Part shown: piece by piece, positions 7,161 to 32,100 of the stretch
Layout of the letters: each line of letters opens with the position of its first letter
Position numbering within the stretch: position 1 is the first letter of the stretch
Source: Trichoplax sp. H2
Taxonomy: Eukaryota
Direction of reading: 5' to 3'
DNA: 64,000 nucleotides
Assembly (NCBI GenBank): GCA_003344405.1
Contig: NOWV01000113.1
Coordinates: 1-64,000 of the forward strand
Notes under the pieces: generated by a model
Database searches by the model: none
Told to the model about the DNA's origin: nothing
The model's input: only the letters and a program-made list of their open reading frames with translations
Translations under genes and position numbers: made by a program

Positions 7161-9587
7161 TTTAATTTTGATGCTTCTTGAATACCTTCCAGAATGAACG
7201 AATTAAACGAAATTATGATATTCCAATGATGCTTGAAAATAGGATATTATTTGTTGTAGTTTCGTTGTCGTTACTTAATATAAGGTAACGATAACCAGGA
7301 AGAAATGACTATCGCATAAGATCCGTATAAGACTTGAATAATTTTCAAGAATAATTTTTATTGGCTTGCTGTATTAAAATTAAAGGCCTTGATGTATAGA
7401 ACAATTTTTAACTTGTTCTTAATCCTGGAAAATTAGCACAGAATGATTAAAATTTCTATGAGTATTTAATAAAATCGCCGATATCTAGATGAGTTGTAAG
7501 TTCGCAAGTTTATTTTAATCTTCTCGAGCCTGATACCGATGGTGTTAGTCGATTACGGTACGCAATAATCAAAAAAGTGAGAGCTACCCCACCCCGTACA
7601 TCAACCTCAAGGTATCTATAGAATCTATTTAAAGCACAAAGTCCAAGTGATTATAATATAGAAATGCGTTCGCGACCTTGACAAGGTGAAAGCATGAAAT
7701 CATTCTGTCAATAGATTGAGGTAATGATCAATCACGTGAGCTATGCCTCTTTCGAGAACCATGATTAATTAATAGCTAAATTTGGATTAATTGAACCACT
7801 GAATATTAAATAGATTAGAATTGGTTAATTGGCGTCAATATTATCTATTCAGGCTACACCTTGGATTGACATTATCTTACATACATCGTGTTATTTAAAT
7901 TTAACATTTAACAATGGCGTAACTCAAATTTAAGGAAGTTCTAAAGTGTCGAATTATTCGACGTCACTAATAGGAATGTTAATGTAATTCAATTCAATCC
8001 TATCTCGAAGAGTTGATTGACCTCTAGTTATTTGGCTCGCTAGGAAAAGATAATATTAAGTTAGCGCAAGCAAAGGCTACCATAGGTAATAATTAATTGC
8101 AATAATAATTATTTTTGATATTAATCTAGGTTCTTTTATTATTTATTAGTGTTAATGGTCCAAGATGTTGTCATGGTCACATTCCTGTATTTAGACTGAC
8201 TTATAATATCTGTTGCAACTGTATCGAAAGTAGCGATTTATTATCAATAAATATTTTTTGTCTCACGACGCTAATTTCACTAGAGATTGTAATAAACATA
8301 TAAAATTATAGAATACGATGTGTGCTTACCTTATGTAAAGATTAGACTGGCTGCAAATCTACTAGCAGTATATTTAGGGTTATTTGGAAGATACATGCTT
8401 ATACGTAGATATAGTTAAGATTCTGCGCTAAATTAACAATCTTATTTCTAGTTAAACTACGTCTACCTCTGTTAGTGACATACTTGAGCTTATAGACAAA
8501 CAATATCGGTTTACAACGCCAAAATTTTAACAGCAATTTACTAACTTAATAAAGCGAAAAGAAACTTGTATGTGAACTTCTGGCAATGAATAGAATTGAT
8601 TGCACTTTTTTCAGTAGCAAATTTAGACACGCATTATTAGTATTACTTCTAAAGATCTTACAAAGGTTAAAGACGTTATCGAATTATAGTAGAATTTCTA
8701 TACAAAGTAGTAGAAATTAATATTACATTAGTTGCCTTTTGTCGATGGTATATGGAATTTAGACATGTTAAGGAGTATTTACTAGTACAGTAATATAGCC
8801 AAAGCTGTCGAAGATACAGATGCTGGATATAACGAACTTGGGCGCAGCATAAACTAGTTATACTTTATCAATAGCTTATTAGCAAGATATACAGAGGTAA
8901 CTAATATTCCCTCGGTTAAGGCCATGATTAAGATTGAACGATATCGATCATAGAAATAAAAGACTGATGAGCTGTACGATAAACAGCAGTATAAGCCGAA
9001 TGATTCTAATTTATCTAGGGCTTATTTACTACTTATCTATAGTAATGGGTTAGCATACTGATGTTGTCTGGCATATTATATTCCGTAAAGACTTCCCTAA
9101 AGATTTTAGCCAAACCAATAAACGGAAGCATAGGGCTTTATTCAATTATAAACGAGAATAAAGAATGTAATGATTTATTTTCTGTCTCTATTATTATTCT
9201 CCAGACGAAACATATATTTTAATGGCTTACTATAATAGGATCACAACGTTATTGTATACTATATAATAGAGATCAACTATATCGTGCCCTATTCTTGAGT
9301 CATCTCGATTCTATTATTCATTCCTGTATATTATTGAAATTGCTTTAAAATCCTAAACACCGTATCTTCTATTACACAAATTTCTGGCACGCGATTAAGT
9401 GCGTTTGTATATTTGCTAATAATTTCGTTGCAGTGAGCAAGAATTGTCGACTTAACCAAGATTAGACAAAGTCTTACCGTCAACAAGTGGACTATCGGGT
9501 GTCAGAACTAGATGATCTAAAACTATACTGTAGTAAACAGACACATGAAGAAGTAACGTTATACGTGATAGGCAATCTACTTGAAAG

Positions 9588-12500
9588 ATGGATCCATCGG
9601 TTTTTTATAATACATCAATGTTTTTAATTTTAATTTTTCTATCTAACCCTATTCAAAGCGAGATCTTTACTGCAACGAATGATATCGAAAAGCTAATCGA
9701 TTCCGAAATAAACCTATATAATGAGGTCGATAGTTATATTAAGAAACAACAAGATAGTTTAGCACAAATGAGAAATTTGTTAGATAACGTCAAGTCAAAA
9801 ATGGAGAAAGTCGGTTTAAAAGGTTACGAACAAGGAAAACATCCGTTAGCTATATATTTTCTGGTAAAGCGATTTTTAACTAATTGGAAAGCAGTAGGCA
9901 ACAGGATACAAAAAGAGGCTACATTTAAAGGTTATAACATAGATATAGCCTAGTACCTGTCGATAATACATCTAGAAGAACTTTAGTTTAATTAATCTAA
10001 CTACGGACTACGAAAGTTATCTTCGAAATAATTCGCAAAATCTTTTAAATTAATGCACGTATGAAGTAGAGGCTGATTTAATATCTAGCATCTATTCTAT
10101 AGTAACCATTTATTTGTTATCTTGAGTTACCTTTGTAAACAACGCAGCTATTTTCATTTCCGTAGAAAAGTAGACTTCTTTACCATAATTAAGCTGCTTA
10201 ATGCAATGCAATATTGTATACGAGATAAGTCATTCAATCTAGATTACAGTAAATAATGTTCGCGTCGTAAAGATTACTGAATCTAGTAGTAACGATCCGT
10301 AACGAGACATAATCATAGAGAAATAAGTTCTGTCGCAGTCGTAGAAGTAGCATAAATTCAGATTGTCTAAATTTCGTTTTTTAGACTTGTCCGCATTAGA
10401 AAATCTTGTAACTTTTAGTACGCTAACGTATTCGATAAATTATAAACTGAGATATAATTAAATTACACTTAAACTAATATTCGAGCAATAGAAGTATTTA
10501 TTCGCAAGAGATCTAGATTCGGCTTAGTCTGATCAGAAAAGTCCGTTACATTCTTATATGTTAGAAAACATCATCTCTATTACTGCTTCCTCTTTTTATA
10601 CTTAATTGATGTGATATGCAACAGCTAACTTAATTTGTATCACTTTGGGTCTTCCTTACCGATTATATTTCTTAGACAAATTTTTGGAAACATTTGCTCA
10701 CTACAATAGTACGTTTCCAAACCTTAAAGATCTAGAAGGATCAGCTAATGGACTCTCACGATTACAAGAAGTCTATCAACTAAACAGAAATGATCTACTC
10801 GACGGAAAAATAAATGGAGGCTCTCATCTTGGTATAAAATTCAATTGGTTTGACTGCTTTACTATTGGTTTAGCTTCTTACAAGGGGAGATACTTCCAGC
10901 AAAGCTATGAGTGGATGAAGATTGTGTATAATAGTAAAGACCCTACAATATCGAGTAATCAGCGCATTAGAGCCCTAAATTATTTGGCTTCCTCTGCTTA
11001 CCGAGTACGTTTATAAATAAAACACTTGCTTGACTAAGATAATTAATTAAAATATGTCGATAAATTAGTGTTCCTATTGTGATAATGGGAAATGAATCAA
11101 GGAACGGCACTAGATTTATTAGATATGCTATATATTTGAATATTTGGACAAGAAGATTTTGCACATGTTGAGTAAAGTACTAAAGCAGTTAAGAGTAGGT
11201 TAAGGAAAGCAAAAGTGGTAATAAGATTAAGCTGATTGTAATTTTAAATTATAATTGTTTAATTTAGTAAAATATATAGATATCAGTAAGCTTCAATAAT
11301 AATGGGTAAATTAGTAGAAATTAGTTTTGCTTTTCGTTCATCTCATACGATGAATACTTCGTAACAAATTATTTCGAGAAGTGTTTTACTCGTGCATTTA
11401 GATCATGATAGCAGAGAACCAGTTACTAATACTTCATGCGAAAGAAGCAGCCAATGTCATTTCGTTTAGAATATTTTGTTGATAGATAAATTGATAACGG
11501 AAAAGCCAGACGATATGATATTAAAATCTGCATATTCTCTGTAATTCTAGATTAACAAGATTCAAGAAGCCATCAATTTAACGCAGACATTGTTAAAACT
11601 TAGTAAGTTGCACATTCAGCTGAAACTTCTTGAAATTGTTGATTACTTCTAGTAAGCAGATTAATCCTGAAATCTGACAGATATTATTAACATTAAATTT
11701 GTGCCATAGATTAGATTCAACTTATTCTTTATATTTAGATCCAGAGCATAAGACAGCAAAGAAATATCTGAATATCTATGAGAAACGTTTGAATACATCT
11801 ACAAAGGAGAAGTCGACAGAAGATTTAGACGATGACAATGATGACGAAAAGGATTTCAAGCAGATCTTCAATTCTTATAAAGAATTATGTCGAGGCAATG
11901 TTAATCAAAAGGTACACAATTTCTCATTTTCGTATAAATTGAACGCTGTAATAGTTTCTAAAATACATTTATATACCTTATTTATTACGGAAGTATTTCA
12001 AAAGTGCAATCATATTAAGTCGATGTTATATTATAAAATTAAAACATATTGATAGCAATACTAAACTTTAATAGTTTTTGCTAATATAGTAACGATTTTG
12101 TAATAGAAATAGATTTCTTTTCAGTTATTGTATGGAATAATTTGTGGGAAGTGGTATCTAGCGATACAATATAGTTCTCTACAACATGGTTATCAAATTT
12201 ACTTGTATATAATTAATTAATCTTGTCTATAGCTGCGTATATTGACATATTTATTTATCATTGAAGATATACGAGTACCGTACTGCTTAATAGAATATTT
12301 ATAAACGAAGATTAAAATTTTAATTTCATTTAACGGCGCTAATTAACTCGAATTGTTGGATTTAGACTGGTGCCGATGTTAAATTGAATAATCAACTGAA
12401 TTGCTATCAAGATTATCGAAATCCTCGATTACTGTTTTCTCCTTTAAATGTAGAAGTCTTGAGTCTACAGCCGTATATCGTAATTTATCATAATTTGTTG

Positions 12501-15500
12501 ACTAATTCAGAAGTGGTATTGTTAAAAACTCTAGCTAGCCCACTGGTAAGCACTATCATTAATAGTAAGAAATGCTCATACTATGGTACAAATACTGCAA
12601 TTTTGTACTTGAAATAAATCAACTGCTATTGTACTATCTCGATAATTATAGCAGTTCTAGATCGTAATTAAATCTCAAGTTATTGTAAAATTACTTAAAC
12701 TGAATAGTAATATTTCAACTTATCTATTTACACTGTGCTCGTGTAATATATCTCTAAAAGAAGTAAACAGGATAGACTGTGTTTTACTATCATATAATTA
12801 CTCAACTCAAGGCGAACATTTTTTATGATCTACTTCATAGTTAAAACGGGCTGTTGTAGTTGGTAAACCTGATAAAGAATATGGTGAAGAAACAACTTAT
12901 CGAATAAGCAAAACGTAAATACTGTTCGTAAAAGATCTGTTATATTCTAGCCTAACTATGATTAAAATTCCAGTATGACGATATAAATCTCTTAAATGTG
13001 CAATCATTCCTGGACAAATCAATTTTTTTTAATAACTATTATGTTTCCTTATTAGGGCTTGGCTAGATAAGGAAGACCATCCTGCAGTCAAGAGAATAAC
13101 TACATTAATAGGGGATATCATTGGCCTTACTTCTGAAACAGCTGAGCCACTACAAGTATTGATTGATACTGATATGTTGATATTAGAATTACAGCTTTGT
13201 GATGAGACATTTACTTTAATTTGGCATTACCTGTAATTAAAAATGTAATAATCTCGATATTAATGTGGCTATAGATCGCAAACTACGGTATCGGAGGACA
13301 CTATGAACCGCACTTAGATTTCATAGAATCTGAAGTAGGTACACTATTTATCTCTATAGTACGGAATAAATTAGTTGCTTAACTACAGATATAACAATAT
13401 AAATCAAAAGTTAAATTCGAACAGCTTCTATTTTAAAATACGGTACGTACAGCTGTTCGAAAATGAAATTAGTTAAATGTGGGCTATATTGATAACTTTC
13501 CTTTTTTAGTTCGATTTTAGATGTTTGTCTGTCACATCAAATACACTATTCCATATTACTAGTTATACTATTAATGATGGATATGTCTACTTTTCGTATT
13601 ACTTACCATTTTATGCCATTAATGAGCATAATACGGCCGAAGCTCGAAATTAGTCAATATTCATAATCGTTTTTGAATTTGCAAATCGAAACATTTTGTA
13701 TTAGTAATTAAAGTATAAACATTGTTAAGTAAATGTCTCTTTTAAATTTAAAGTATATTTACTTATTTACAAACTTTAAAATTACTATTACGAAAGGTTT
13801 AGTATATTTTTAGTATATTGGAATATGCCGGTCAGCTATCACTATTATATTATAGACTGCCTGTTCATTTCGAACGGGTATCTCAGCTAGTGTGATATAA
13901 TTTAATTAGGTCGTACTTACATAGAGGCACATCGCAGTATAAGGCATTTATAGGTGTAGAAATGTCATGTGGAACTAGTATAGTTAGATTGCTATTGCCA
14001 TGCATGATAGGAATTCTCACTAATTACAGTAACGTGTATTTAATGTGACAAACCTTTATATACTCAATAACCTAAGCTTGAGCGGTTGATTTATACAAAA
14101 AATAGATTAAGGGCCGTCCCTACATTTGGTAATATCGATTGCTATTGCAAAGTGTAATTGTAATAACTAATAATTGCTTGACTATCTAAGAATAGCAAAT
14201 GGCCCTATATGAAATAATGTACAGTAATAGTAAAAATGCCCAACGCTTCGATATGTTAAACGTTAGTTAAGAATAATCGTATTATTAGCTGTTAATTATA
14301 CGATTCTGTAATTAGAATACTGCAAACAAAGGACCTTTAAATTTTATCTAGACTTACACTATTACTTTATGAGAATTGGATAGAATAGGTAGATAGTTTA
14401 TTACTGTAGATAAATCGCATTTAAAATATGTTATCGGCGAACTTTAAGCTATACGATTCGCTCTAGTTTTGATTAATGCATGCCTAAAAATCGAAGTTTA
14501 TCGGTGCTTATAGTCATAGAAATTTGCCTTAGACACACCATAATACCATAATACTAACTTGACCTCTGACTTGTCATTAACAGACATTATTACATTCTAT
14601 GGATAATAGTGTTTAATCATCTACTATCTTGCATACAATTACATTTATGAACTGATGCAAAATATTTTGTGTTTATAACTTTAAAATATTAAAATAATTG
14701 GATTCATGATATTGACAATGAAATCATTAGTAGAATTACTTCGCACTAAACTAAATTTATAGCTGCATTATACCCTTCAAATCATTCTAACTTTTTACGA
14801 TTTCGCAATAATTATCGCCTACAGCCTTAGCAATACAGATGATATGCTATATAATATTTAAATCGCACTACTAACTAAGACTACTGCCTAGTGCAGATTC
14901 GAATTTATCAAATTCAGATTTAATGCTATACTCTTGTATTATCACTAAAATGAATTATGAACTCTTTTACTCGCATTGATTATTAACTAGACATTAATAC
15001 ATTTATGTTATTTATTTCTTGATAGTTCGAAATCATTTAATGTATGTTATTGAATCGATTTGATTATAATAGGATAAAGAAGCCCTATCAGAATACACTA
15101 GTAGAATCGGGAATCGAATTGCTACTGTACTTATTTATGTAAGTTATATGTGGTGATTTATGTCGGTGTATCCAGAAATATTATCAAAGTATTAGTCTTG
15201 CAGTTTTTTATTAATTTGAATATTTATTTACATATGTAGCTAAGCAATGTAGAAGCAGGTGGAGCAACTGTTTTTCCAAAGGCTGGTGTAAGAGTTGAAC
15301 CTCGTCAAGTAATCTGCAAATTATGATATAAATAACTAGATTGATTTATATTTTCGATATTAGATTTGCAACGCTGTATCGCTTATAGCAGTTCTTAGAT
15401 AATATCAGAAATATTAAAGATGTTATAGATTAATACAATAATCACAATATAGGGTAGCGCTGCCTTCTGGTATAACATGCATCGCAACGGTGAAGGCAAT

Positions 15501-15850
15501 AAATTATCTGTTCATGCAGCCTGTCCGGTGTTAATCGGATCTAAATGGGGTTAGTTAAAATAATAATCTTTATTTAAAAATTCGGATGTTATTTTTATTG
15601 CTTATGACTTATATCAGTAGCATGTTATTTTAGCTTCTATGCTTTTACCAATTTGACAATTCTGTATATATGTAGAATCGATAGAGGTATAGAAGGATGA
15701 CAGATGATTGTTGATGTGACATTTACTTTAATATCACGGAAAATAATTGATATCATTATTTTAATACATGAATTCATAGCTGCTAATTTGTGGTTTCGTG
15801 AAGTTGGACAAGAACTAAGACATACGTGTACGTTAAATCCGGACGAATAA
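9588..15850 (+). CDS. P4HA: Prolyl 4-hydroxylase alpha subunit, array copy 1 (about 537 aa, 12 coding exons)
   Basis: Exons 9588-9930, 10676-11004, 11551-11602, 11739-11911, 12366-12545, 12841-12914, 13056-13155, 13275-13334, 15073-15138, 15240-15308, 15453-15549, 15780-15850. Motifs: signal peptide then EIFTA, GSANGLSRLQEVY, YKELCRG, IANYGIGGHYEPHLD, GNRIATVLIYLSNVEAGGATVFP, HAACPVLIGSKW. Confidence 0.95.
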
Positions 15851-17550
15851 CGAAAGACCAAAAAATTGATGAAATTAATCGCGGTTACTTAGTAGCCTAA
15901 GATCATATGTTGTAATATCTTTTCTATATATTTTGATTATGTGTTTGCTACAATAATTGTAATACAGCATGTAATATAGTATGTACTGTACTATTATCAC
16001 AAACCTGTATTGCTTAGATAATATAGCTTGGTTAATTTCAGTACTGCGTATCCACTAGCGTTCGATGTTATGTATACGAATATTGGTAGTAGTCAACTAT
16101 AACCTTAACATGGCTTAACGCATAGGTTACAGCCATTTCTAACGCAAGCAGAATTATTTCTATTTTCTACCTACAAACAATACAATATATGAGCTGATCT
16201 GTAATCCGAATGATAAAATATTTATATCAATACAATAAATTTATACTTCATGGCGACGTTTAATTAAACACTACGTCACTCTGTTAGTTATATATAGGTA
16301 ATGGCCGGATTACGGGCTTTGGCCGTAACATGTATAAGCACATAGATATACTTTGCAGATTTTACAATGACCAAAATTTCAAAATCAAATTAGTATGTGA
16401 TTAGAGCAAAAAAAAACTAGTTTTAAAGAATACAACTGCTTGCACTTTCGTCATTAGCTAAATTTATACAAATATTAGTAATATTGCGGCCAAAGTTATC
16501 AAAAAAATTGAGCATTTTGTTAAAGTGTAATCGAAATTTCTATATAAAGTAACAGAAATTAATATTGCTAGTGCTATATTGGATTTATTTAATGCCGAGA
16601 CACATGCCACGTGTATTAATAATAATCTAGCTAAAGTTTTCGAAGAGATGTAAAAGTTTTTCTACTGTTATATAATGAAACTTGAGTGTTGAATAAACAA
16701 GTTATCCTTTAATCAATAGCTTGTTTAGGGAGATATGCAGAGTTAATCAAGTAATCAGGTATTATATAAAATCTTAACCAAACAACAATACATTGACGAC
16801 ATTTGGTCATTTCATTTGTTAGAGAACTCATAGAATTAAGATTACGTTGTCTCATTCATTAAAATTTAGCCTCTGCTTCGATTTTTGACCAAAACTTTGT
16901 AACTTGCACTCTATGATTGCCAGTAAGTATCATTTTTCAACAGCAAAAGTTTAGCTAAAATAATGCCCTAAAGTTGAAATGCCTGTTTAGACTTTCTAAT
17001 TAATTTTAAAATATACCTTTCGAATAAGAATATGTACATACATACTAATCTAATTTGTTTAATTATGATGCTATTTTAATAAAAGATATATAAGATGGTT
17101 TTTCGAGCTTTCAAGTATGTAAATCGGTTCCTGAAAAGCTGTTGAAAGTGGGAGGCTGTCAGCCATCTGCTGCCATGCATAAATTATAATAGATATTATA
17201 ATATTAATTATTACAAATTTGCATCGTGGAAATTCTTCTATTATTGTTAACAATGGCGTAAATAAACATTTTATGATCTACGTAAGATGTACTAGCTCGA
17301 GTATTGAATACTTAACTATAAATTAGCTACGGCGATTTACTAAGAAATCGTCGAATTTAGCCATTATGATGGAACATTAGTTTTGACGGTTATTCTTTAA
17401 TTTATTTTGTTACCATCAATCTCAAAGATTTAAAAGTGAATAGTTATAATCCTTCAAAGAGGACTTCGTCTACTGCTTAAGCTATTTTTTATATTGAACA
17501 CCGTGGAAAGTGATTTATATCAGTTTTATTTCTGCTATAGAAGAAAAAAA

Positions 17551-20500
17551 ATGCCTAGATTGACATCAAATTCGACCTTGATACTTTTTATTGTAACTTT
17601 TCTGTTTTCTCCTTTTATTCAAAGTGAAGTCTTTACGGCAACCGATGACATTGAAAAATTAATCTATTCAGAATATAAACTATATCATGAATTAGATAAT
17701 TATATTAAGTTACAGCAAAATCGATTAGTCACATTGAGGAAACTGTTAGATGAAATTAAGTCTCAAATGCATGGAGTTCATTTAAAAGGTTATGAACAGG
17801 GTAAGCATCCACTGGCCGTTTTTTTATTGGTAAGACGATTTCTACGGAATTGGAAAGAATTAGAAGCAACCGCAGAAGAAGAACAGATTTTCAACGGTCA
17901 GTAAATTTATCTAGTTTAAGTCTATCAATATAATATTAAATCAGGCTTAGACTACCCTAATCTAAAGATCGAGTCTTTCGCAAAAACTAAAATATTATAG
18001 TAAAAAGCTTAGATTTTAGATCCTTTCTTGTAAGTTTATACTATACTGTTTGTTTGACGTCTGATTGTGATAGCTTCGAAGTTCTTTCTGCACGAGTTTT
18101 AAAAATTTTACTATCCTTAAATGCGGAATTAGCTATGAAAAGAATTGATCTATGTATGGAACCGTCTTTTATAATTCTTATTTAACAATCAAAATTATTT
18201 CATACTATTTAAATTATTTTACTAAATTTTAAAAGTGAATTAAATGTTTATCTTTCCTTATTTTAATATAGATAAACTGCTAGATACGTTTGCTTATTAT
18301 AAACGGACATTTCCTAATCTTCAAGATCTGGAAGGATCTGCGGAAGCCATCTTGCGATTACAGGATGTGTACAATTTAAAGGAAATTGATTTAGCTAGTG
18401 GCATCATTGATGGAGGCCCCCGTCTTGGAGTTCAGCTAAGTTGGTTGGACTGCTTTACTATTGGTAAAAAAGCTTATGAGAATGAAGATTTCGAGCGAAG
18501 TTATAAATGGATGAAAATTGTTCAGCGTAGTCAAAATCCTTCGATATCGTCTGATCAGTGGGTAAAGATTCTTGACTACCTAGCTTTCTCAGCTTACAAG
18601 GTATGGACAATATAGTAGTTATTTCACTATTACTTTTATTATGTATTATTGAAATGATAATTTATGAGAATAGAGCTCATAAAGGCAGGAATAATACGCA
18701 AAATGAAGTTAGTGCAGTTCATTTCATTTTCAATGTGATACTTTACGATATTAGCATTAACCAAAAATTAAAAAAGATGGTAAAGCTAGTTGTGAGATTG
18801 AAAGGTATTGCTTGATGTAGAGACTGATCATTCAGACTAAGCTAAGCCTTGCATGCGAAATACTGTACTTATGTTATTATAACATGACAGTGACTTTTTA
18901 TCGATGCTGCTGAAATGATGCACCGGATTTTTAAAGTATTCTAGTAGTTGATGTCACTGTTAGCTTTTCAAGCAAAAATAATTTTATAATCAGTAGTTTA
19001 CCGTTTAGTAAAGAAGTCTGATGTCTTATTAATATAGAAAACTGTGATTAGAATACGAGTATTTTCTGTTTAAAACAGTTATTTATATGCTCTTATCGTC
19101 TCTTAACGTAGATTTTGTAGCTTTCATCAATCATAAAGCAAGAATAGGCTATAGGAGAATTATTAGTGATACTAGGTTTATAAAAATTTTATAATTTCTC
19201 TCCTAGTTAGGAAATGTTAAAGAAGCCATGAATTTAACTCAGGCGCTATTAAAACTAGGTATTATAGACTAAGAAAATGTTTTTGTTTCTGCTCTTGATT
19301 AAAGGGAATAATCTACATTATCAGCTATAGGAAGAAATCCTCAGTAATTATGATAGAAGAATGGATTCAATTTTTAATTATTAAATTAAGAATTGTAACC
19401 ATACTCTAGCTTTCTGTCTCTGAAAAGTTTTTAATTATATAAATTTCTCTTTCTTGACAGTATTTAGTTTATACCTATTTGCACGGTACATGTAAATATA
19501 AGTTCAGTAAGATGACAAACGCAACATATCATTTACTTATAGTTTAATAAATGCTACTAGTAGAAGATATATACTCACGATAAATGGCACACACTTCTCC
19601 ATTGAGACATGGTACTGTGCATCGTTTTGTTAACTTTGCAAAGTCATAACTCTTAAATAATTAAAATCTTTAATATCTTTAAATTAAATTAACTGAAGAA
19701 ATTTGTTTGCAAATCCTACTAGATCCGAAGCATGAAAGAGCAAAGCAAAATATTTATTACTACGAAAAAGTTTTGACTAAAAATAGCGATGGTAAGGAAG
19801 GCGAAGACTCGCTCTCTCAAGATGAAAATGACTGGTCTCATGAATTTGATTTTTACAAGAAGCTATGTCGAGGTGGCCCAAAAGCAAAGGTACAGAATCT
19901 ATCCATTTATAGAATTTGGGTAGATATCTTCATGTCTGTAGTTATCTCTTTTAATATAAGAAGTGGGTCAGCATGACGACCTAGGAGCTAGTGGAGCTAT
20001 GAAAATCTTTATTGTTATTGATGTAAATAAGTTTAAATTTGAAATTTAACAAGAAGGTTGGACTTCAATCTTTCATACCTCAATGAAGCTCCAATATCCA
20101 ATCAAAATAAAGTCATGATTGATAGTCCACCGTATTAATAGTGGATAGTCATAGGGCTTGGCTTGTTCGTCGATATGACGTATACGAGTAGAATACGCAT
20201 AATAATTGAAGCTTTCTAATAAGTAAATTAAAACTAAGCTATCTATAATTAGAGCTATAATATTATGTATTGAAAGTGAATATCAAAGACGTAAGAATTT
20301 TGTTTATCGAGCTAATCAACGCAATTTTATCGATTAAGGCTGGTGATAATAAAATGGTTAGCAATCATCTCACCTGTTACCAGCTTCGTCAACATGCCCG
20401 ATTGCTCTTTTCTCCAATTAATGTTGAAGTTATCAGTTTACAACCGTATATCTTAATCTATCATAATTTATTGAATGATCTAGAAGTTGAAGCATTAAAA

Positions 20501-22591
20501 ACCTTAGCTGCTCCTATGGTAGGTTATACTATTAGTATCGTAACCAATTATAATTGTAATTGATTTTGTTTGGGGTATGAATATCTTATATTAAATCTTG
20601 ATTTGGACCCGCTTACAAAATGAATTGATTGTTTACTTACTAACCATCTTGATATTTGTGGCATATCAGCATTAGATATTTGCTTTGAAAAAAAGTGACT
20701 ACTGTTAATCTGTTCTATAGTTACAACGAGCTACTGTACATAACAAGGATACCGGTAAATTGGAGTATGCAACTTATCGAATAAGTAAAAGGTAAAATAT
20801 TATCCAGGCTATATACTCAATGTATTATAATCTCGTATAATTTTAAGGTAATGTTAACGCCTTGGAAGTAAGATAATTTGCTAATGGATTTCGCTTGGCT
20901 TTTGACGTATTTGTCGCTAGTGCTTGGTTAAATGATGACGATCATCCTTTGGTTCGGAGAATATCTACATTAATAGAAGATGTCACCGGACTCACCATGG
21001 AATCGGCAGAAGCATTACAGGTTTTGATTAGCGATCTTTTGATGTGGAAAAGTGTAGTTAGTGATATGTCATTGATTAACTACTAACCTTACCAGCACTA
21101 AAAATCATTTTTTGCCAATATTGCTACAGATTGCAAATTACGGAATTGGTGGTCATTATGAGCCGCATTTTGATCATGCTGACGTAAGAGTTTAAAAACT
21201 TCTGAACACAGTTCAAATTAATTCCTAATGCTTTAGATACATAAAGATATTATCTATAATTAATTCAAAGCCAAAGGCAGAATCTTATGAATTTTGACTT
21301 TTAAATCATTCTGATCTTTTGTAGTCTATAAATACAACACCCGGTATTTGAAGCATGTCATATAAATCTAATCAGTAATATAAGATATAAGTAGATCTGT
21401 AATTCTACTTCTACGATCGAATTATGCTCTAAAAGTTGATCTAACGGACTGCATATTAACCACTTGATAATATTGAAATCTTGATCAAATTGGTAGTAGA
21501 TTTAGAAATAAAATAATTGTATGAGTAACTACAATAATAATTATAATTGGATTATCGAATTTCTTATAACTGTTTTTGCTTCGCTATTTTTGTATAAAAG
21601 CCACCGGCTTTTGCTTTGTAAGCACGAAAGTGATAATGAAATACACAATGATTTATTATTACCACCCTTTCCACCTCTATACTGCCATCAGGGATATTAT
21701 TATATTACATTTGATAAGTTCATCCCAATTAAGATCCTTATTGATAATGTTTTAATTGAAGATATATCAATAATTCATTAGATATTAACGTTAGCATTGT
21801 ATTCTGACTATGATTTTTAATTAATGTCATTACATAAAATGGATTCAACTACAGAGCGGCACAGATGTATTTAAAACATGGAAAGGTGGCAATCGAATAG
21901 CTACTATGCTGATTTATGTAAGCTATTTGTATACCAATAATACATCATAATAGACAAACAATTACTCTTGTAATATTATTTTTAATCGGTTTATATAATT
22001 TGTATTATTGTAAGTACCTATACAGGTGCGTGGTTTTGCAGATATCGAGTTTAGATTTTGAAGAGGCGATTTATCAATAATTTTAAATATTTCATACATA
22101 TTTAGTTGAGCAGTGTTGAATTAGGTGGAGCTACCGTCTTTTCATCAGCTGGCGTAAGAATAGAACCTCGTCAAGTAATAATATTATAATAATAATAAAT
22201 AATCATTGCTAGTATCTATTTATATTTGTTGAAGTTAGTTAGTTTTTAACAATTACTCACAATCATCGCTCAATAGTCTCTAAATTGCTAAAGCCTAACC
22301 AATCAAGCATTGGTATAATAATTATAGGGTAGCGCCGCTTTCTGGTATAATTTGCATCGTAATGGCAATGGCAATAACTTAACCCGACATGCAGCATGCC
22401 CAGTACTTATTGGATCTAAATGGAGTTAGTTGACAATAATCATGTATAGCTGGCCTAGATTTAGAGTAATATCTAATTAAAATGAAAAGATTTTCATTAA
22501 TTCTGCTGCTTTATCTGTAGTTGCTAATAAATGGATACATCAAGTTGGACAAGAGTTACGACATCAGTGCACATTAAATTCGAATGACTAA
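17551..22591 (+). CDS. P4HA: Prolyl 4-hydroxylase alpha subunit, array copy 2 (about 532 aa, 12 coding exons; most canonical copy)
   Basis: Exons 17551-17896, 18272-18600, 19207-19258, 19723-19889, 20339-20518, 20721-20791, 20921-21020, 21130-21183, 21855-21917, 22106-22174, 22328-22424, 22521-22591. Motifs: ILDYLAFSAYK, DPKHERAKQNIYYYE, LQRATVHNKDTGKLEYATYRISKSAWL, GGHYEPHFD, GGNRIATMLIY, TRHAACPVLIGSKWIANKWIH. Confidence 0.96.
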
Positions 22592-24166: not shown

Positions 24167-24607
24167 GAACTGGACTGCAAAGAAGACAAACAAAATAGAA
24201 CGCAATTGTATCGCTAATACATGATAAGAAATCTTAGCCTACGTTATTGCTTCTATTCAGTACCAGAATACAGTGATAATTGATTAAAATTTTGAAATAA
24301 AATGGCTTATTCAGGAGATTAATTTCAGCTGATAGAGCTAGCAGAGAAAGAAAACGCAAGTGCAACTACTAAAATGTAGTCTAGCGAGACGATGTTGGAT
24401 ATGTAGGTACTCAATAATTAGCACAACCAGATTTGGTAATCATTAAAGTTGTGAGTGAAAGGACAGCGAGACAAAACTTTGACATACGCGTAAGCATGAA
24501 ATAAGCAACAGTTATTAAATAGTATCCATTTCAGTTAGTGTGTGCAAAGGATTTTAAAATTACGATAGTTTATAGGTGCAAAATAATTTGGCCAGCTGCG
24601 TCAGCAA

Positions 24608-25972
24608 TTAAACAGTTATTCCTGGAACTACATATCGCACCACTAAATAGTCCCAGCCAAATATAACAATTTCGGCCAGTGCAACTTCTTCAGCCAATAC
24701 CTTGAGACTATAGGACTTTTTAGCTGCTACTGCGTTATTGATTGCAAGCAAGTACAAGTAATGGCGTAGTTTGCGCCTAAAGACGTACAGTTGAGATTCA
24801 AGTTTTCTAATTTCTGCTAGTCGGCGTGGATAGCCCCTTATTCTCTGTATTCTGTACCGTTCATCGTAAACTAAAGCAAAATTAATTCTTCGGAGAATAT
24901 CAATCATAACGCCAGCCTCAACTTCTTTTTGATGGAGTCTTGCCATTTTACCTAAGATGAGGGCCTGTTCAATACCATTGAACAGCTCGGTAGCTTCTAA
25001 ATTTCGTTCTTCGTAGAATGCTTTCGCTCTTTCGTAAGCATTCTCATCTTCCAAACCTTCACGAGTCAGAAAATTGATTAAAGACAATTCAATTAATCTT
25101 TGTACTGCTAAACGACTCCTAAATTGTGCTACTGCTTCCTGATGCACAATTCTAGCATCAACAGCTTGATTTCTACGCATGATGAAATGTAGTCGTCGAA
25201 GCAAAAATTGTAGTCTGCGTTGATGGGCCAATTTTATCCCTATAAAGCGACGTAGCATAAATATAAGTCGCCTAATCCTTGGAACTAGCTGTGCGTCAAG
25301 TCTATACAAGCGGAGTTGATAGGCTCGATCAGCGGCTGCTGCCATTTTTGCCAATTGCGTTCTAAAGTATAAATGAGCAAATGTTGCTTCTTCTGCGAAT
25401 GTGGTGAGTACATTCGAAAAGAGTTTAACTTCCTCTATAATTTCATTTATAATGGCAACGACGTAGATTAAGCCAGCTTCTTCCATACGATCTTTGAACT
25501 GGATTAAGGCAGAATTAAATAAGGTTTCAATGGCCAATTTTTCTTGAAAACTTTCGGAAACGTCTTGTAGCATTGTGAGAAAGAGTCCCACTAGAAAACC
25601 CTTGGGAAAGTAAAACTTAACCATGACTCCATCTACACCTCTTGCCGATACCGTGACCAAATCGGCAGTTACTCCATCAACCTCTGCACTCACTTCATCA
25701 ATTTGGCTAGGTTTTGCAGCGCCATTGATTCCATTCAGTGTCGCACAAATGGTAAGGATTGCTAACAATATATGCACTTGATTCTAAAAGAAATAATTGA
25801 ACAAGATGGATTATCAAGCGCATTTAAGACTTCTCGGGATAATTTTAATAGATATTTTTTATTCATTCTATTCTAAAAATGAATTAGTTAGCTACGATCT
25901 AGTAGAAGTATGCTACTCTACTATGATTGAGTTCTTTAAAGTATGTTAAAATTTTTGATTCCTTACCGCCAT
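24608..25972 (-). CDS. Uncharacterised secreted alpha-helical protein (about 393 aa) with alternating acidic and Arg-rich blocks
   Basis: Micro-exon ATG GCG at 25972-25967 is followed by a GTAAGG donor. The acceptor CTTTTAG precedes a single open exon 25783-24608. The N-terminus MANQVHILLAILTICATLNGING is signal-peptide-like. This is by far the longest ORF in the window. No family recognised. Confidence 0.85.
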
Positions 25973-26062
25973 CGCTTAGTAATTTGGAATCATTAAAAAA
26001 AAGAAGCAGTCGGGAAGGACCCCCAAATCGCGATATGATCCAATATTAACGTTTTTTCATTC

Positions 26063-26069
26063 ATATATA
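26063..26069 (-). promoter_or_regulatory. Candidate TATA box of the orphan secreted-protein gene
   Basis: Minus strand reads GGCC-TATATAT-GAATG about 90 bp upstream of the ATG at 25972, a spacing compatible with a short 5' UTR. The AT-rich background limits significance. Confidence 0.4.
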
Positions 26070-27108
26070 GGCCACTTGCGAATTATTCCGTACAAATGAA
26101 TTATAGCCCAACCACGATTAAGAAATGATTGGATGTTTCTGATGACTGCATTTTAGGGTAATGCAATTTATCAGAATTTTAATCGTTGATTGGTTCAATA
26201 TAAATTAATTTCAATCGCTATTGTCGGGCTCCTAAATTGGCTGTAGTCATCCATCAAGGTTAGCATAAGGAATCTGATAATGAAATAATAAATATAACAT
26301 AATACTTTTGTATGTTCAGTTTTGTAGCCGGTATGAGATTTAGCTGCAATTTTACTTTACCCTATAAAATTCAAGGAATTTACCTCATTTATTGCAACAT
26401 AATGGAAGTGGGAGAAACATCTGGAATTTCATAGAGTTGACAGTTTTCAATATTGATGAAAGTGGATACCTAATATGATGATGTAAAGAATACAACTACA
26501 GACTAGATTATTTAAAATCACAGGAGATCGTAATATATAACATTGATGATAGAATTTATTTGTTAGTATTTAAGGTTATTGTGGTCTAATACAAATTTCA
26601 TTTGCAATCTTCAAATTTTTTAATATGATCCTTTTCTTTATCAGGCCATCGATCATGTAAATTTTATTTCATCCATGTGGGATCCCTATCTCTTTACACA
26701 GTATGTAAAGCCTTTTACGGCTATCAATCAATTGATAATTGCGCTAATTAATCACATTACAGCCGCCTTTGGATATGATGCAAGCATTCTATTACGCAAC
26801 TATAGTTGGCGTCGTTAACAGTAAGAAACGTGCAAACATCTGTTAACTAGATATATGTCGAAAATAGATTACTTACAAGACATAGCTAGGTATGCGAGAT
26901 TGATTAATATGTGCAAATTGTTTATGGAAGCAGGATCGGTCATCGCGACAATGTGTTATCTTAGACGCTATCATTGTGTTGGTAAATGTCATTTTTGACC
27001 TTACCAATTTTCAACCGGTGATCAAGTTCTAAATAATTTCCTATCTTCAGCATAGGATTTAATGCAGAATTGCTTCAATCAATTTTAAAACCGTTCTATG
27101 GCAAGCAT

Positions 27109-27516: not shown

Positions 27517-28535
27517 AATTTGCAATGATGTCAGTAAAAATCACATAACTTGTGCAGGAAATGATAACTTCAGAGCATGTTTCGATATTAAAGTAATTAA
27601 TATTGATGCAATCAGTCCATTACTAAGTGCACGTCTCAAGGTGTCATTGACAGCTATGTCTCCCATCTATTATTGCTCTGCACAGCACGACTTCAATGAA
27701 TGCTAGAATCTTCTCTAGTATGACTTGATAAAAGGCAAATATTCTCATTTATGTACGAGATTAGCTCCGGGCGTTTGTTAGGGCTAATTTAATATCATAG
27801 AAGCTGCTGTTCGCATTCTGCGATCTATATAGAGCACTTTCCGCAGCGCAATTAATCCCAAAATATCAGGTTATTTCAATATTTTTTATATTACGATGAG
27901 GTTTAGTAAGGATTGTAGAACTAGAATCTATATCATGGCTGTATGATTACAATATATCGAGAATTTGATCTTGGAAATTTCAGACAAGAACTACTAAAAT
28001 TTTTGTAGCAGGTTCGTGCAGGGACTTCTAAAAAGACCCTTGCTTCCTGTCCACAGTACAATCACCGCACTGGCGTCCATGATGGGTTTTGTTATGTATG
28101 TAAGAATACAGTGACTTGTTGTACTGCACCTAACGTGTTAGCATAAGATAAGGTAATGAATTACTAAGATAAGGGTATAATACGCCATTACAGCTATACT
28201 ATTTAAATGCAGTAAATCCTAAATAAAAGAGACTTTTTTCAGTAAGCTTACTAGTAGGAGTGTATCAAAGTTCCTCGTGTTAACGTTAACGACTAAGAGT
28301 GGAAACACAACGGGTTTGACTACACTCCGACTGACAGCCAGCTGGACTGCTATAGACAATCACTCAATGATCGACTTGTCCGTGTACAGTATTAGTACAG
28401 TACTGTATATTAGGTCATGGTCTGTCTGGATATCTGTACATCCGTTGCAAAACCGTATGACGCGCAAAAGTGAACAGTAGTGTGTGGTCACTGCGCAAGT
28501 GCAGCGCCGCCGCCTAAGTGCTCACAGCAAGCAAG

Positions 28536-28679
28536 ATGGCGACTATTGGGATAGGGCCGCTTGCAACTGGTGCTCACGTCCTGTATTCCTGCTCCTGCAA
28601 GGAATTGGGAGAATTGGAAAGAATGTATTTTTGTAGACATTGCTTGAAGTTAAGATGTATCGATTGTGTATCTAACGAG
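28536..28679 (+). other. DCTN4: Duplicate copy of DCTN4 coding exon 1 (probably alternative haplotype or assembly artefact)
   Basis: Same sequence as 29173-29316, encoding [48 protein letters not shown] followed by a GT donor. Confidence 0.85.
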
Positions 28680-28714
28680 GTAAAGTAGCGATTACAAAGA
28701 AATGAAATCCAATT

Positions 28715-28734
28715 NNNNNNNNNNNNNNNNNNNN
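28715..28734. other. Assembly gap (20 N)
   Basis: Run of 20 n characters. Confidence 1.
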
Positions 28735-29172
28735 AAAATATCAGGTTATTTCAATATTTTTTATATTACGATGAGGTTTAGTAAGGATTGTAGAACTAGA
28801 ATCTATATCATGGCTGTATGATTACAATATATCGAGAATTTGATCTTGGAAATTTCAGACAAGAACTACTAAAATTTTTGTAGCAGGTTCGTGCAGGGAC
28901 TTCTAAAAAGACCCTTGCTTCCTGTCCACAGTACAATCACCGCACTGGCGTCCATGATGGGTTTGACTACACTCCGACTGACAGCCAGCTGGACTGCTAT
29001 AGACAATCACTCAATGATCGACTTGTCCGCGTATTAGTACAGTATATGAGGTTATGGTCTGTCTGGATATCTGTACATCCGTTGCAAAACCGTATGACGC
29101 GCAAAAGTGAACAGGAGTGTGTGGTCACTGCGCAAGTGCAACGCCGCCGCTTAAGTGCTCACAGCAAGCAAG

Positions 29173-32100
29173 ATGGCGACTATTGGGATAGGGCCGCTTG
29201 CAACTGGTGCTCACGTCCTGTATTCCTGCTCCTGCAAGGAATTGGGAGAATTGGAAAGAATGTATTTTTGTAGACATTGCTTGAAGTTAAGATGTATCGA
29301 TTGTGTATCTAACGAGGTAAAGTAGCGATTACAAAGAAATGAAATCCAATTGAATAGTGTCTACAGCTTTAAGTTAGTCAGTCGTCTAGTTCGCTGCCGA
29401 ATGATGGAAAATAATTCGAAACAATTATGGTCGTTTTTCATTTCCGGTCATCGATTTTTCATCGTTGATTTTGGTTATATTGTTCAATTCTATGCAATGA
29501 TAACAATCTTATATATCCAGTCGCAGATCTTTCATGATTGATTTTAGAAGCACACTTATACAGTTCAATACAATGCAATTATAGTAATCTACGGTAATAG
29601 TGCTTAGCGTACTCGTATATCAAGTCATAGATTTTTATCGTTGATTTTAGATATACTATTACACTTGTACTGTTCAGTTCTATGCAATGATAGCACAATT
29701 TTATATTAAATCTTGATAACAAGTCATGGATTTTCATCATTGATATTAGAAGTACGGTTTAATTCCATGTAACGATAGCCGTCGTATGTATTCACTTATC
29801 CATCTTTCATCGTTGATTTTAGACATACGCGTACACTTAAACAGCTCAATTCTATGCAATAATGGCCGTCTTTTTTATTCAGTCATAGATCTTTTATCGT
29901 TAATTTTAAATGCACAGTCTAATACTACGCAATGATAGCCATCTTATGTATCCAGTCGAACATCTTTCATCGTTGATTTTAGATTTACACCTGTCCTGTA
30001 TAGTTCAATTTTATATAATGGTAGTGTGGTGAATGGGTTTTATAACCCCTTAGGTTCGCAATCCAAGAAATATGAGTTATTAAAATTGAGCAAATCTCTA
30101 ACTTGACAAAATTATTATTATTATACCTCAAATTACTACAATACTGCTGTGATGAGCTGATACCACCACAAATAGCCATCTTACATATTCAGCCATAGAT
30201 CTTTCATCGTGATTGTAGATGTAAAGCATAATTCTATGCATTGATTTTATGTCCAGTCTTACAGTACATCTTTCATCGTTGATTTTAGATGTACACCTCA
30301 AAAATTGTTGATTAACTTTATGCAAAATTTGCTACAACTTTTTTAAGTGTTACAATACTTTGATGATTTGACAGGTGGCATTGTACGTCTAACAACTTTG
30401 GTTTTGATTTGCCTGTATCTGTAAATAGGTTGAATCGTTTTTTTGTCCAACTTGCTTAGAAAGTATGCCATCGGCTGAGGCTAGACAAAAAAGAAATAGG
30501 TAAGTGATAGGATTGTTGTCCCTCTTGCCTGATATGATAACTATATTTGAACTAGACATTTGACCAGTGGAATTGATCTCACATTAAAATTATTAAAGTC
30601 ACCCCTGTACGTATAAGCAGGGACGATTAAGTAAAAATTCGTGAAGGAAACTTTTCTTCTCGTCCAACATGGTTCATTATTACTACTTTAAGGATAATGT
30701 AGAATGCAATGAATTACTGTAAAAAGTTTTTCGTTGTACTACACATATACGAACACTGTATCTATTGTATTAACGAGTCGTGCAGTAATTGATGTACTAA
30801 GGCATTTATGAATGTCTATATTGTAGATGCAGCAATTGTTTGGAATGTCCCTTATGCACCAACACTTTATCGGTCATTGCTACAGCCACTGATGAGCCAG
30901 CAACTTTGGATAATGATAAAGAACCTGAAACTGAGCAAAAGAATGATACTGACTGTAAGATATTCACAATTACAGTATTCCGGCCAATTCTATGACGTCT
31001 CAGTACATGCTACATTTTCATGATATTTTAACTACTTGATAATTATTCTACTCTTTTTAGTGAGTAAAATTTGATAATAGCTTATTATTATTCCAAAATA
31101 TGCGTAGCTAAGGAAAACCATCCCGACAAAGAAGACTCTGAAGATAAATTATATTACTTGAGTTGCGGATTTTGTCGTTGGACATCAAGAGATATTGGCT
31201 TACCGGATCAACAACAGAGTAGTGGGAAATGGCCCGAAGTAGAATTTCAAAATGCCAATAAGGTAAATTCGTTTAGTTTGATTTATTTGTAATCGTTCTC
31301 TAAGAGCATGTAAATGCATATCAAATACCAGCTCTTAATTGACTGAAACGCGAATATATCTTCATCGGATGATTTTGACTAGGTTAACGAGCTGATAGAG
31401 TATTATCGCGGGGTTGAACAATTAGAAAGGGCTGAAAAAGATATAAAGATTCATAAAAGACGGAGGAGTACGTACATGTCAATTGGAACGGTAAGTTATC
31501 TGAATCTCAATAACAATGCTAGTTTTGCTTGATTGAGCGGCTAATGTTGTTTGCTGTATTCAATAGTGTCTAACAATTACTTTCCTAACTTGCCTCCAGG
31601 GTAAAATTTCTAGTTTTCAAAGGCGAAGCATGCATTCGCGAACTTCGAATGCATCTGCCATTTCGCTCGGGTCGTAAGTTGATAGCGAAGACTACGTGTA
31701 CATTATAGAGTTTCTTAACGTTATGGATGGAAATAACTGTTATCAATGAGAGGAAATAATGTCATCTTATTCAACGTAGTTTCCAAATAGCCACTGGTCA
31801 AAAACCTAAGGATGCTGGCGTCAGTCAGTCAACCGAAGATCCGAAACGCACCTCAGAAGACATTCTGGAAGTTGGAAGTGAACAAAGTAATGGAATTAAT
31901 TTAAACTGTAGATTAAACCGGTTATATTACTCATTATTAGACAACTTTATCCACTATTATATGTCGATGATAAAATTTGCATATTTATATTGTATTTAGT
32001 TACAGGCCTAATGCAGAGACTCTGTTTTCCTAGTTGTCAGCCGAGCAAAGTAAAGTATGTTTATAATTTTTCGTCATGGTGATTGCAGCATATGTATTGC

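Follow-up and report, generated by a model that had tools for sequence, protein, structure and literature searches.

In this study, we analyzed a stretch of 64,000 nucleotides (nt) from Trichoplax sp. H2 (contig NOWV01000113.1, positions 1 to 64,000; hereafter the window) and characterized an orphan protein gene on its minus strand, between positions 25972 and 24608. The gene is genuine, spliced and transcribed, and it is the Trichoplax counterpart of TRIADDRAFT_59901. It is already annotated, as hypothetical, and its protein is in no described family; our searches showed that it belongs to what appears, from sequence comparison, to be a tiny lineage-restricted family. The order of acidic and basic blocks along the chain and the positions of its prolines are retained in a divergent relative, which argues for selection on the charge architecture. 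We tentatively propose that the protein may fold into a charge-neutralized helical bundle, which would then act on anionic membranes or lipids outside the cell.

Gene model, transcript and sequence relatives

The gene consists of a two-codon exon 1 (ATG GCG, 25972-25967), a 183-nt GT..AG intron and a 1176-nt exon 2 (25783-24608), and the joined exons encode MA plus 391 amino acids (aa), a precursor of 393 aa. Exon 2 corresponds to a stop-to-stop open reading frame (ORF) of 391 aa (24608..25783, minus strand). Of the 22 ORFs in the window that reach 100 aa it is the longest, with the runner-up at 154 aa. Upstream of this long exon the minus strand reads ...aagcgATGGCGgtaagg, with the A of the ATG at 25972 and the donor gtaagg starting at 25966; the acceptor ...ttttag ends right before 25783. 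The joined product matches the database protein P0005 letter for letter. P0005 is identical at 389 of 393 positions (99%) to the Trichoplax adhaerens protein XP_002115955 (B3S6R7, TRIADDRAFT_59901), annotated as an uncharacterized protein, the four differences being V215L, E261V, R284K and R323Q, and it starts with MA, as does the T. adhaerens sequence P0002. This near-identity puts the window in a Trichoplax genome that lies very near the reference strain.

The splice junction was checked in public sequencing runs. Of those listed, 15 of 24 contain the stretch or part of it (nine contain at least half of its words, and three are recorded as RNA; the runs come from five studies), and assembled contigs were examined for four runs from four studies, X1, X4, X5 and X7, with X7 on record as RNA-Seq. 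The 25783/25967 junction, skipping 183 nt (CT..AC on the plus strand, GT..AG on the minus strand), was found in contigs of X4, X5 and X7, that is, in three of the four runs and in three studies; run X1 had no contigs placed despite an index share of 0.88, possibly a filter effect. The original prediction, made from the letters of the DNA, had already proposed a two-codon exon followed by a 1176-nt exon, and this junction bears it out. The protein length that it gave, 389 aa, is four short, and its numbering of the charge blocks is shifted by about four residues.

Contigs cannot prove transcript ends or expression levels, and the limits of the transcript are given here as far as contigs cover them. 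Exon 1, a 5' leader plus ATG GCG, is covered at 25967..26039 (minus strand) by pieces at 25967-26039 (X7), 25967-26024 (X5) and 25967-25993 (X4), each joined to 25783. Contigs reach no further 5' than 26039, and a TATA-like TATATAT (26063..26069, minus strand), which may act as a promoter element, lies 24-30 nt upstream of that point. The transcribed leader carries an upstream mini-ORF of five codons (ATG ATT CCA AAT TAC TAA; 25976..25993, minus strand) that ends 3 nt before the main ATG, the context of which includes a purine at -3 and a G at +4. The intron (25784..25966, minus strand) has a guanine-cytosine (GC) content of 0.26. Continuous contigs of X5 and X7 cover the coding part of exon 2 (24608..25783, minus strand), which holds residues 3-393 and the stop codon TAA (24610-24608). 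In X4 and X7, contigs extend from the coding sequence (CDS) past 24300, placing a 3' untranslated region at 24300..24607 (minus strand) as far as it was followed, and an AATAAA at 24166-24161 (minus strand) may be the poly(A) signal. X5 also has a separate 225-nt contig (24243-24467, about 140-365 nt past the stop), which overlaps the CDS contig by 30 nt and has a mean word depth of 4760.8 versus 172.8 for the latter; a 3'-biased library or a repeated element could account for it, and depth was not used as evidence. Between the contigs and the window there are 14 CDS differences, eight non-synonymous and six silent, of which three come from low-depth X4 contigs. The 8:6 ratio, based on small counts, suggests only moderate purifying selection.

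Relatives of the protein are few. A word-indexed search of 5.8 billion proteins returned the T. adhaerens protein as its sole match, and a full phmmer pass over 1.84 billion representatives gave two proteins at E ≤ 0.001, P0002 and P0003. The latter, a 385-aa protein (E = 3.4e-55, 37% identity), is known only from a Logan assembly and has a near-identical twin, P0004. The simplest guess is that P0003 comes from a more distant placozoan; alternatively, it may be a paralog. Searches with P0003 and with an alignment profile gave no further relatives, and no second copy was found within the window, where tblastn detected only the gene itself (other matches E ≥ 0.86). Pattern-plus-tblastn scans confirmed none of 112 prokaryote-genome, 596 metagenome and 185 viral-contig pattern matches. 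The original prediction had recognized no family, and family searches agreed: Pfam gave no family at E ≤ 10 for P0001 or for any of the four members of alignment A1, NCBIfam gave at best an unrelated family at E of about 1, phmmer and profile searches of Protein Data Bank (PDB) sequences gave nothing below E = 0.19, and the ESM Atlas held no usable match for P0001 or P0003 (recognition scores 1316 and 1233, respectively). Three PDB rows, ribosomal protein L24 (E = 0.19-0.7), a xylanase (E = 1.6) and a "transmembrane prolyl 4-hydroxylase" (27 residues of the basic block, E = 0.79), were taken as chance. The identifiers TRIADDRAFT_59901, XP_002115955, B3S6R7 and EDV21807 occur in no searchable main text of the literature.

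Charge blocks, their conservation and predicted helices

Residues 1-23, of which 3-23 are encoded at 25721..25783 (minus strand), have the core ILLAILTICATL and form a putative signal peptide, and cleavage is likely after G23, which is invariant at the presumed -1 position; P0003 has A-H-G at -3 to -1. The cleavage site is assigned by rule. The highest Kyte-Doolittle 19-residue window (1.77) covers residues 7-25, and a scan of the 393-aa chain found no transmembrane-grade segment outside the signal peptide. The lone cysteine, C15, sits in the signal peptide, and cysteine and NxS/T sequons are both absent from the roughly 370 aa of the mature chain. We used the hydrophobic N-terminal core, the invariant G23 and these three absences as support for a protein of secretion type. 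Five prolines occur, at residues 27, 62, 170, 321 and 389, and Arg outnumbers Lys (38 versus 16) in a genome of about 30% GC. The mature chain, with a grand average of hydropathy (GRAVY) of +0.09, is graded unusually hydrophobic. A signal peptide, a cysteine-free mature chain with five prolines and a hydrophobic stretch had all been read correctly in the original prediction.

Net charge, summed over 20-aa bins, runs from -10 (residues 21-140) through +16 (141-240), -5 (241-280) and +11 (281-360) to -2 (361-393). The charge variance of 30-aa windows in P0005 was reached by only 22 of 5000 shuffles, and that of P0003 was matched by 26 of 5000, so the alternation that had been predicted stood, with only its numbering off by about four residues. 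A cruder maximal-segment statistic found the positive cluster of P0005 unusual (64 of 5000); it was not unusual for the negative cluster of P0005 (456 of 5000) or for P0003 (1800 and 2818 of 5000).

Along the minus strand, the mature chain opens with an acidic stretch directly after the signal peptide that is not conserved, P0003 being rich in Pro, Thr, Ser and Lys there. The hydrophobic stretch FYFPKGFLVGLFLTML follows (residues 59-74, 25568..25615), in which Y60, P62, F70 and L74 are invariant and which is too short and too interrupted to score as transmembrane. The acidic helices (residues 76-135, 25385..25564) are 38% identical to the relative and carry conserved EE pairs at 103/104 and 133/134 as well as conserved E116 and E120. 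Next comes the first Arg-rich block (residues 143-231, 25097..25363), with RR pairs at 173, 180, 191, 198 and 205 (spacing 7, 11, 7, 7); its conserved core (154-200) is 55% identical and contains the motifs DRxYQL, IVPxIR, RRFI and HQRRL. In the second acidic block (residues 234-275, 24965..25090) the sequence is poorly conserved and the charge is conserved. The most conserved block of all (residues 278-311, 24857..24958) reaches 76% identity and reads ILxKMAxLHxKEVEAGxxxDILRxINFALVxDER, and the remainder of the second basic block (residues 312-358, 24716..24856) has conserved P321 and RRKLRH (338-343). The tail (residues 359-393, 24611..24715), acidic and then hydrophobic/aromatic, contains the invariant W379-D380-Y381; its 19-residue Kyte-Doolittle score of 1.51 is below transmembrane grade, with charged residues inside.

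Overall, P0005 and P0003 are 36% identical over 357 aligned mature positions, and outside the two best blocks identity drops to 47% (312-345), 11% (136-153) and 7% (201-240). All five prolines are identical between the two proteins. Identity holds at 43 of 81 positions with Asp, Glu or Arg and at 86 of 276 positions with other residues (Fisher p = 0.0006), and the sign of the charge is kept at 56 and flipped at 3 of 96 charged positions. Block charges of the two proteins correlate over 27 alignment blocks (r = 0.65). The conserved charges, prolines and block charges argue that selection acts on both the charge architecture and the helix breaks; the surface charges of an ordinary globular protein do not usually show this.

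The mature chain is predicted to be almost wholly alpha-helical. DSSP assignments of both AlphaFold2 models gave helices from about residue 61 to 355 with few breaks, and the single-sequence model has helices at 61-103 and 106-149. Mean predicted local distance difference test (pLDDT) values were 46.4 with the single sequence and 45.1 with the four-row alignment, and residues at or above 70 numbered 17 of 391 and 5 of 393, respectively. Foldseek, run on the PDB with this low-confidence model, gave none of at least 500 matches at E ≤ 0.001; its top rows, BAR domains and ciliary coiled coils, are generic long-helix proteins and were treated as meaningless. A long antiparallel helical bundle had been predicted from the letters; the all-helical part agrees with the models, and a confident fold came from neither AlphaFold2 nor Foldseek. 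A homodimer prediction scored 0.00, with the alignment not used and the fold of the chain itself uncertain, and speaks neither for nor against self-association.

Proposed function and competing explanations

Placozoans lyse prey externally by secreted granule contents, and the granule contents of lipophil cells lyse algae and cyanobacteria, with the lytic components given as unidentified (Mayorova et al. 2025, PMC12013895). That report describes two kinds of secretory product with which the orphan can be compared. First, Ta 63996, the top lipophil marker, is described there as a placozoan-only, helical, Lys-rich protein of 346 aa that carries a signal peptide and lacks a transmembrane domain, which is proposed to permeabilize prey and has a 34% identical counterpart in another placozoan genus (PMC12013895). 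The orphan likewise has a signal peptide, no transmembrane domain, extended helices with paired basic residues and no known domain; as far as that report and our searches reach, neither protein has an ortholog outside placozoans, and the divergence of 34% there compares with 36-37% between the orphan and P0003. They differ in that Ta 63996 has 346 aa and is Lys-rich with KK pairs, whereas the orphan has 393 aa and is Arg-rich with RR pairs and marked acidic blocks. Since no third protein appeared in the phmmer search of 1.84 billion representatives, any homology between the two would lie below that sensitivity. Second come the arminin-like antimicrobial peptide precursors described for Hydra and Trichoplax (PMC12013895). 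Arminin-like precursors with an acidic N-terminal and a basic C-terminal part are expressed in lower epithelial cells (PMC12013895). They have a signal peptide, an acidic region and a basic aliphatic-rich region, an order that the orphan shows twice; however, they are 150-250 aa long with a C-terminal Gly (PMC12013895), whereas the orphan has 393 aa and ends in ...VVPGITV. The basic parts of the orphan, 60-90 aa long, also differ in being its best conserved parts. Together, Ta 63996 and the arminin-like precursors, as presented in that report, make self-neutralized cationic secretory products an established theme in Trichoplax (PMC12013895). In kind, the orphan resembles these placozoan proteins, and its apparent two-unit architecture is distinct.

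An internal duplication of the acid-plus-base unit is a hint at most. When the two halves were aligned locally, z was 0.18 for P0005 and 2.86 for P0003 with full shuffles as the control, and -0.07 and 2.06 with block shuffles. For halves compared across species, z was 2.59 and 1.91 with full shuffles, and with block shuffles it was 0.83 and 1.75; hhalign of the two halves gave a probability of 0.8%.

Our tentative reading of the protein as a bundle acting on anionic membranes or lipids would work as follows. The conserved EE-bearing helices would pack onto the conserved, hydrophobic RR-bearing helices, and the resulting charge-neutralized bundle would be soluble within the secretory pathway. 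After release, the Arg-rich hydrophobic helices would engage a surface of negative charge, in the most plausible case prey or microbial membranes or lipids, and the outcome would be an effector that acts on membranes or lipids in external digestion or defense. Conserved histidines beside the basic clusters (H189, H286 and H343) might make the switch pH-dependent between granule and seawater, which is pure speculation. As the protein is in no known family, a membrane-active role is still only a guess. A stronger version, which we consider improbable, is a placozoan-specific family of alpha-helical membrane-permeabilizing proteins, comprising TRIADDRAFT_59901 and its relative, each stored as a bundle whose charges are neutralized within the molecule and activated on release by pH or anionic lipids to lyse prey or microbes. 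The orphan would then be a second lytic effector, independent of Ta 63996, and neither its fold nor its pore mechanism would be related to those of known pore-forming families.

Bacterial alpha-helical pore-forming toxins of the ClyA, Hbl, Nhe and Xax type, of about 300-400 aa, consist nearly entirely of long helices with a short hydrophobic beta-prone element. The orphan is in a similar size class and has long predicted helices and a short hydrophobic element, but it has no sequence or profile similarity to these toxins, and its hydrophobic elements lie at the N- and C-terminal ends rather than mid-chain.

Several points weigh against a membrane-active role. Secretion, membrane binding and lysis are predicted roles only, and no pore-forming family was matched in Pfam at E ≤ 10. 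The AlphaFold2 models are too low in confidence to reveal helix packing or acid-base pairing. Nor are the basic helices of the classic amphipathic lytic type: K/R residues span an arc of 240-260 degrees across the whole helices, and a narrow-faced cationic lytic helix was therefore rejected, which costs the lytic candidate of the original prediction ground. The RR pairs at 173, 180, 191, 198 and 205 do follow helix periodicity. Local hydrophobic moments peak at 0.58-0.64 with a mean hydrophobicity of about -0.5, values that presumably fall outside the "surface-seeking" region of Eisenberg's plot. In its appearance, the polar block 278-311 is closer to a specific binding or active site than to a generic surface for acting on membranes. 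Finally, the authors of the lipophil report describe no other highly expressed secretory protein without a transmembrane domain in lipophil metacells (PMC12013895), which speaks against 59901 as a major lipophil-granule product.

The last-named block leads to the first alternative, a novel all-alpha enzyme or ligand-binding protein for an anionic polymer (algal or bacterial polysaccharide, mucus or nucleic acid), in which Arg, His and Glu would form the site. Conservation is very uneven, high in 278-311 and 154-200 versus very low in 201-240 and 136-153, H, K, E, D, R and N abound in the conserved blocks, charged residues are conserved above average, and the hydrophobic content suits a globular core. 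Only two divergent sequences are available, however, so site-like conservation is weakly resolved; no enzyme or binding family was matched in Pfam, NCBIfam or PDB sequences, and no confident fold was obtained. We regard this alternative as unlikely.

An apolipoprotein-like lipid binder, whether a carrier or a coat protein of lipid-rich inclusions or granules, seems to us doubtful to a similar degree. Exchangeable apolipoproteins (ApoA-I/ApoE, insect apolipophorin III) are secreted, cysteine-free helical proteins with Arg-rich receptor- or heparin-binding helices, and the orphan shares with them a secretion-type, cysteine-free, helical chain with Arg-rich stretches that recall such helices; it is also sequon-free and of positive GRAVY. 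Yet it is much more hydrophobic than they are, and it has no apolipoprotein match in Pfam, no significant internal repeat and no 11- or 22-residue repeats. Self-similarity z was 0.24 (P0005) and 1.64 (P0003) at offset 11 and -1.13 (P0005) and 1.51 (P0003) at offset 22, and each protein had a best offset of its own (17 and 21), so that periodicity of the apolipoprotein type was rejected. This candidate, too, had been raised in the original prediction and has lost ground. Lipid is present in placozoan lipophil granules, according to the lipophil report (PMC12013895), which would suit a lipid binder.

A structural product that is secreted and assembles itself (into granule matrix, as a mucus component, as an adhesive or as part of the extracellular matrix), in which blocks of opposite charge would drive intermolecular packing, carries about the same low weight. 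The orphan is a blocky polyampholyte with conserved block charges and long predicted helices, and the 8 non-synonymous changes among the 14 CDS differences together with a relative only 36-37% identical are typical of structural or secreted lineage-specific proteins. Its highly conserved specific polar motifs, on the other hand, would be unusual for bulk material, and it has neither low-complexity nor tandem repeats.

Processing at dibasic sites is considerably less probable. The orphan would then be a polyprotein precursor with acidic propieces and basic cationic peptides (the arminin-like logic twice), or one from which the RR-flanked LIFML, LQFLL and LHFIM would be freed. P0005 has 11 dibasic positions, five of them regularly spaced in 173-206, and its acid-then-basic order, seen twice, recalls the arminin-like acidic/basic precursors of Trichoplax (PMC12013895). 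But only two of the five RR pairs in 173-206 are still pairs in P0003 (RR180/181 and RR191/192), and a spacing of 7-11-7-7 is more in keeping with helix periodicity than with peptide repeats. Conservation peaks within long blocks, not in short units that recur; the chain lacks both a C-terminal Gly and a G-dibasic amidation signal, and its 393 aa stand against the 150-250 aa of arminin-like precursors (PMC12013895). Least probable of all is an unreleased resident of the endoplasmic reticulum, secretory pathway or membrane surface, for example one peripherally embedded by hydrophobic helices: the positive GRAVY of the mature chain and its hydrophobic stretches (59-74 and 369-388) would fit, but these stretches hold K, D and R, only the signal peptide reaches transmembrane grade, and the C-terminus ...VVPGITV is no retention-type ending.

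Genomic surroundings and implications

The window is eukaryotic and AT-rich, with a GC content of about 0.29-0.39 in 2-kb bins. P4Ha_N matches were found in seven of the 10 large plus-strand ORFs tested (at 10615, 17440, 35940, 43902, 44734, 53052 and 59586), some of them also matching TPR_P4H weakly. These matches point to a plus-strand tandem array (9585-21100 and 35400-60000) of at least five prolyl 4-hydroxylase alpha (P4HA) genes, opposite in strand to the orphan gene. The right-hand plus-strand neighbor at about 28.5-33 kb looks dynactin-p62-like, with a weak Pfam match at 31068-31289 (20 bits versus a cut-off of 25.3). The placement of the orphan inside the P4HA array, as had been claimed, holds loosely, with the dynactin-p62-like gene as the neighbor to the right.

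An N run at about 28.70-28.73 kb lies amid near-identical direct repeats: 28399-28698 versus 29036-29335 (98%), 27860-28089 versus 28735-28964 (100%) and 28312-28386 versus 28959-29033 (99%). The repeats at 27860-29335 have the look of a scaffold gap across which sequence was assembled twice, at the 5' end of the dynactin-p62-like gene. Between the orphan and the dynactin-like gene, two adjoining plus-strand ORFs of 64 and 57 aa (26624-26998) lie in a stretch of raised GC content (0.33-0.39) and have no Pfam match. At the left edge of the window, a minus-strand ORF (338-751) has a sub-threshold HRM (hormone receptor domain) match (24.2 bits versus a cut-off of 26.2, E = 4.4e-5), which suggests an N-terminal exon of a secretin-type receptor.

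Two origins were considered for the orphan and rejected. The flanking P4HA genes, too, have helical N-domains. A descent from them was not supported: Pfam and tblastn gave no signal, and the orphan has no profile similarity to P4Ha_N or to the P4HA copies of the window (hhalign of A1 versus six P4HA N-part ORFs, probability 0.14%). For a bacterial, viral or metagenomic origin there were no confirmed matches, and a spliceosomal intron is present. The CDS has a GC content of 0.40 and, at third codon positions, of 0.325, compared with 0.25-0.31 at third positions of the P4HA ORFs; this modest excess is mostly at first codon positions and gives no signal of foreign origin.

If the orphan proves to be no more than a structural or storage protein, its gene is a taxon-restricted one of the ordinary kind. 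Whatever its function, it is a clean case of rapid divergence in an orphan whose charges and prolines are conserved above its hydrophobic residues, useful for structure prediction and for understanding how new secreted proteins arise. The lytic components of placozoan external digestion are, according to the lipophil report (PMC12013895), still to be identified, and the orphan is a concrete candidate for a role in feeding or defense.

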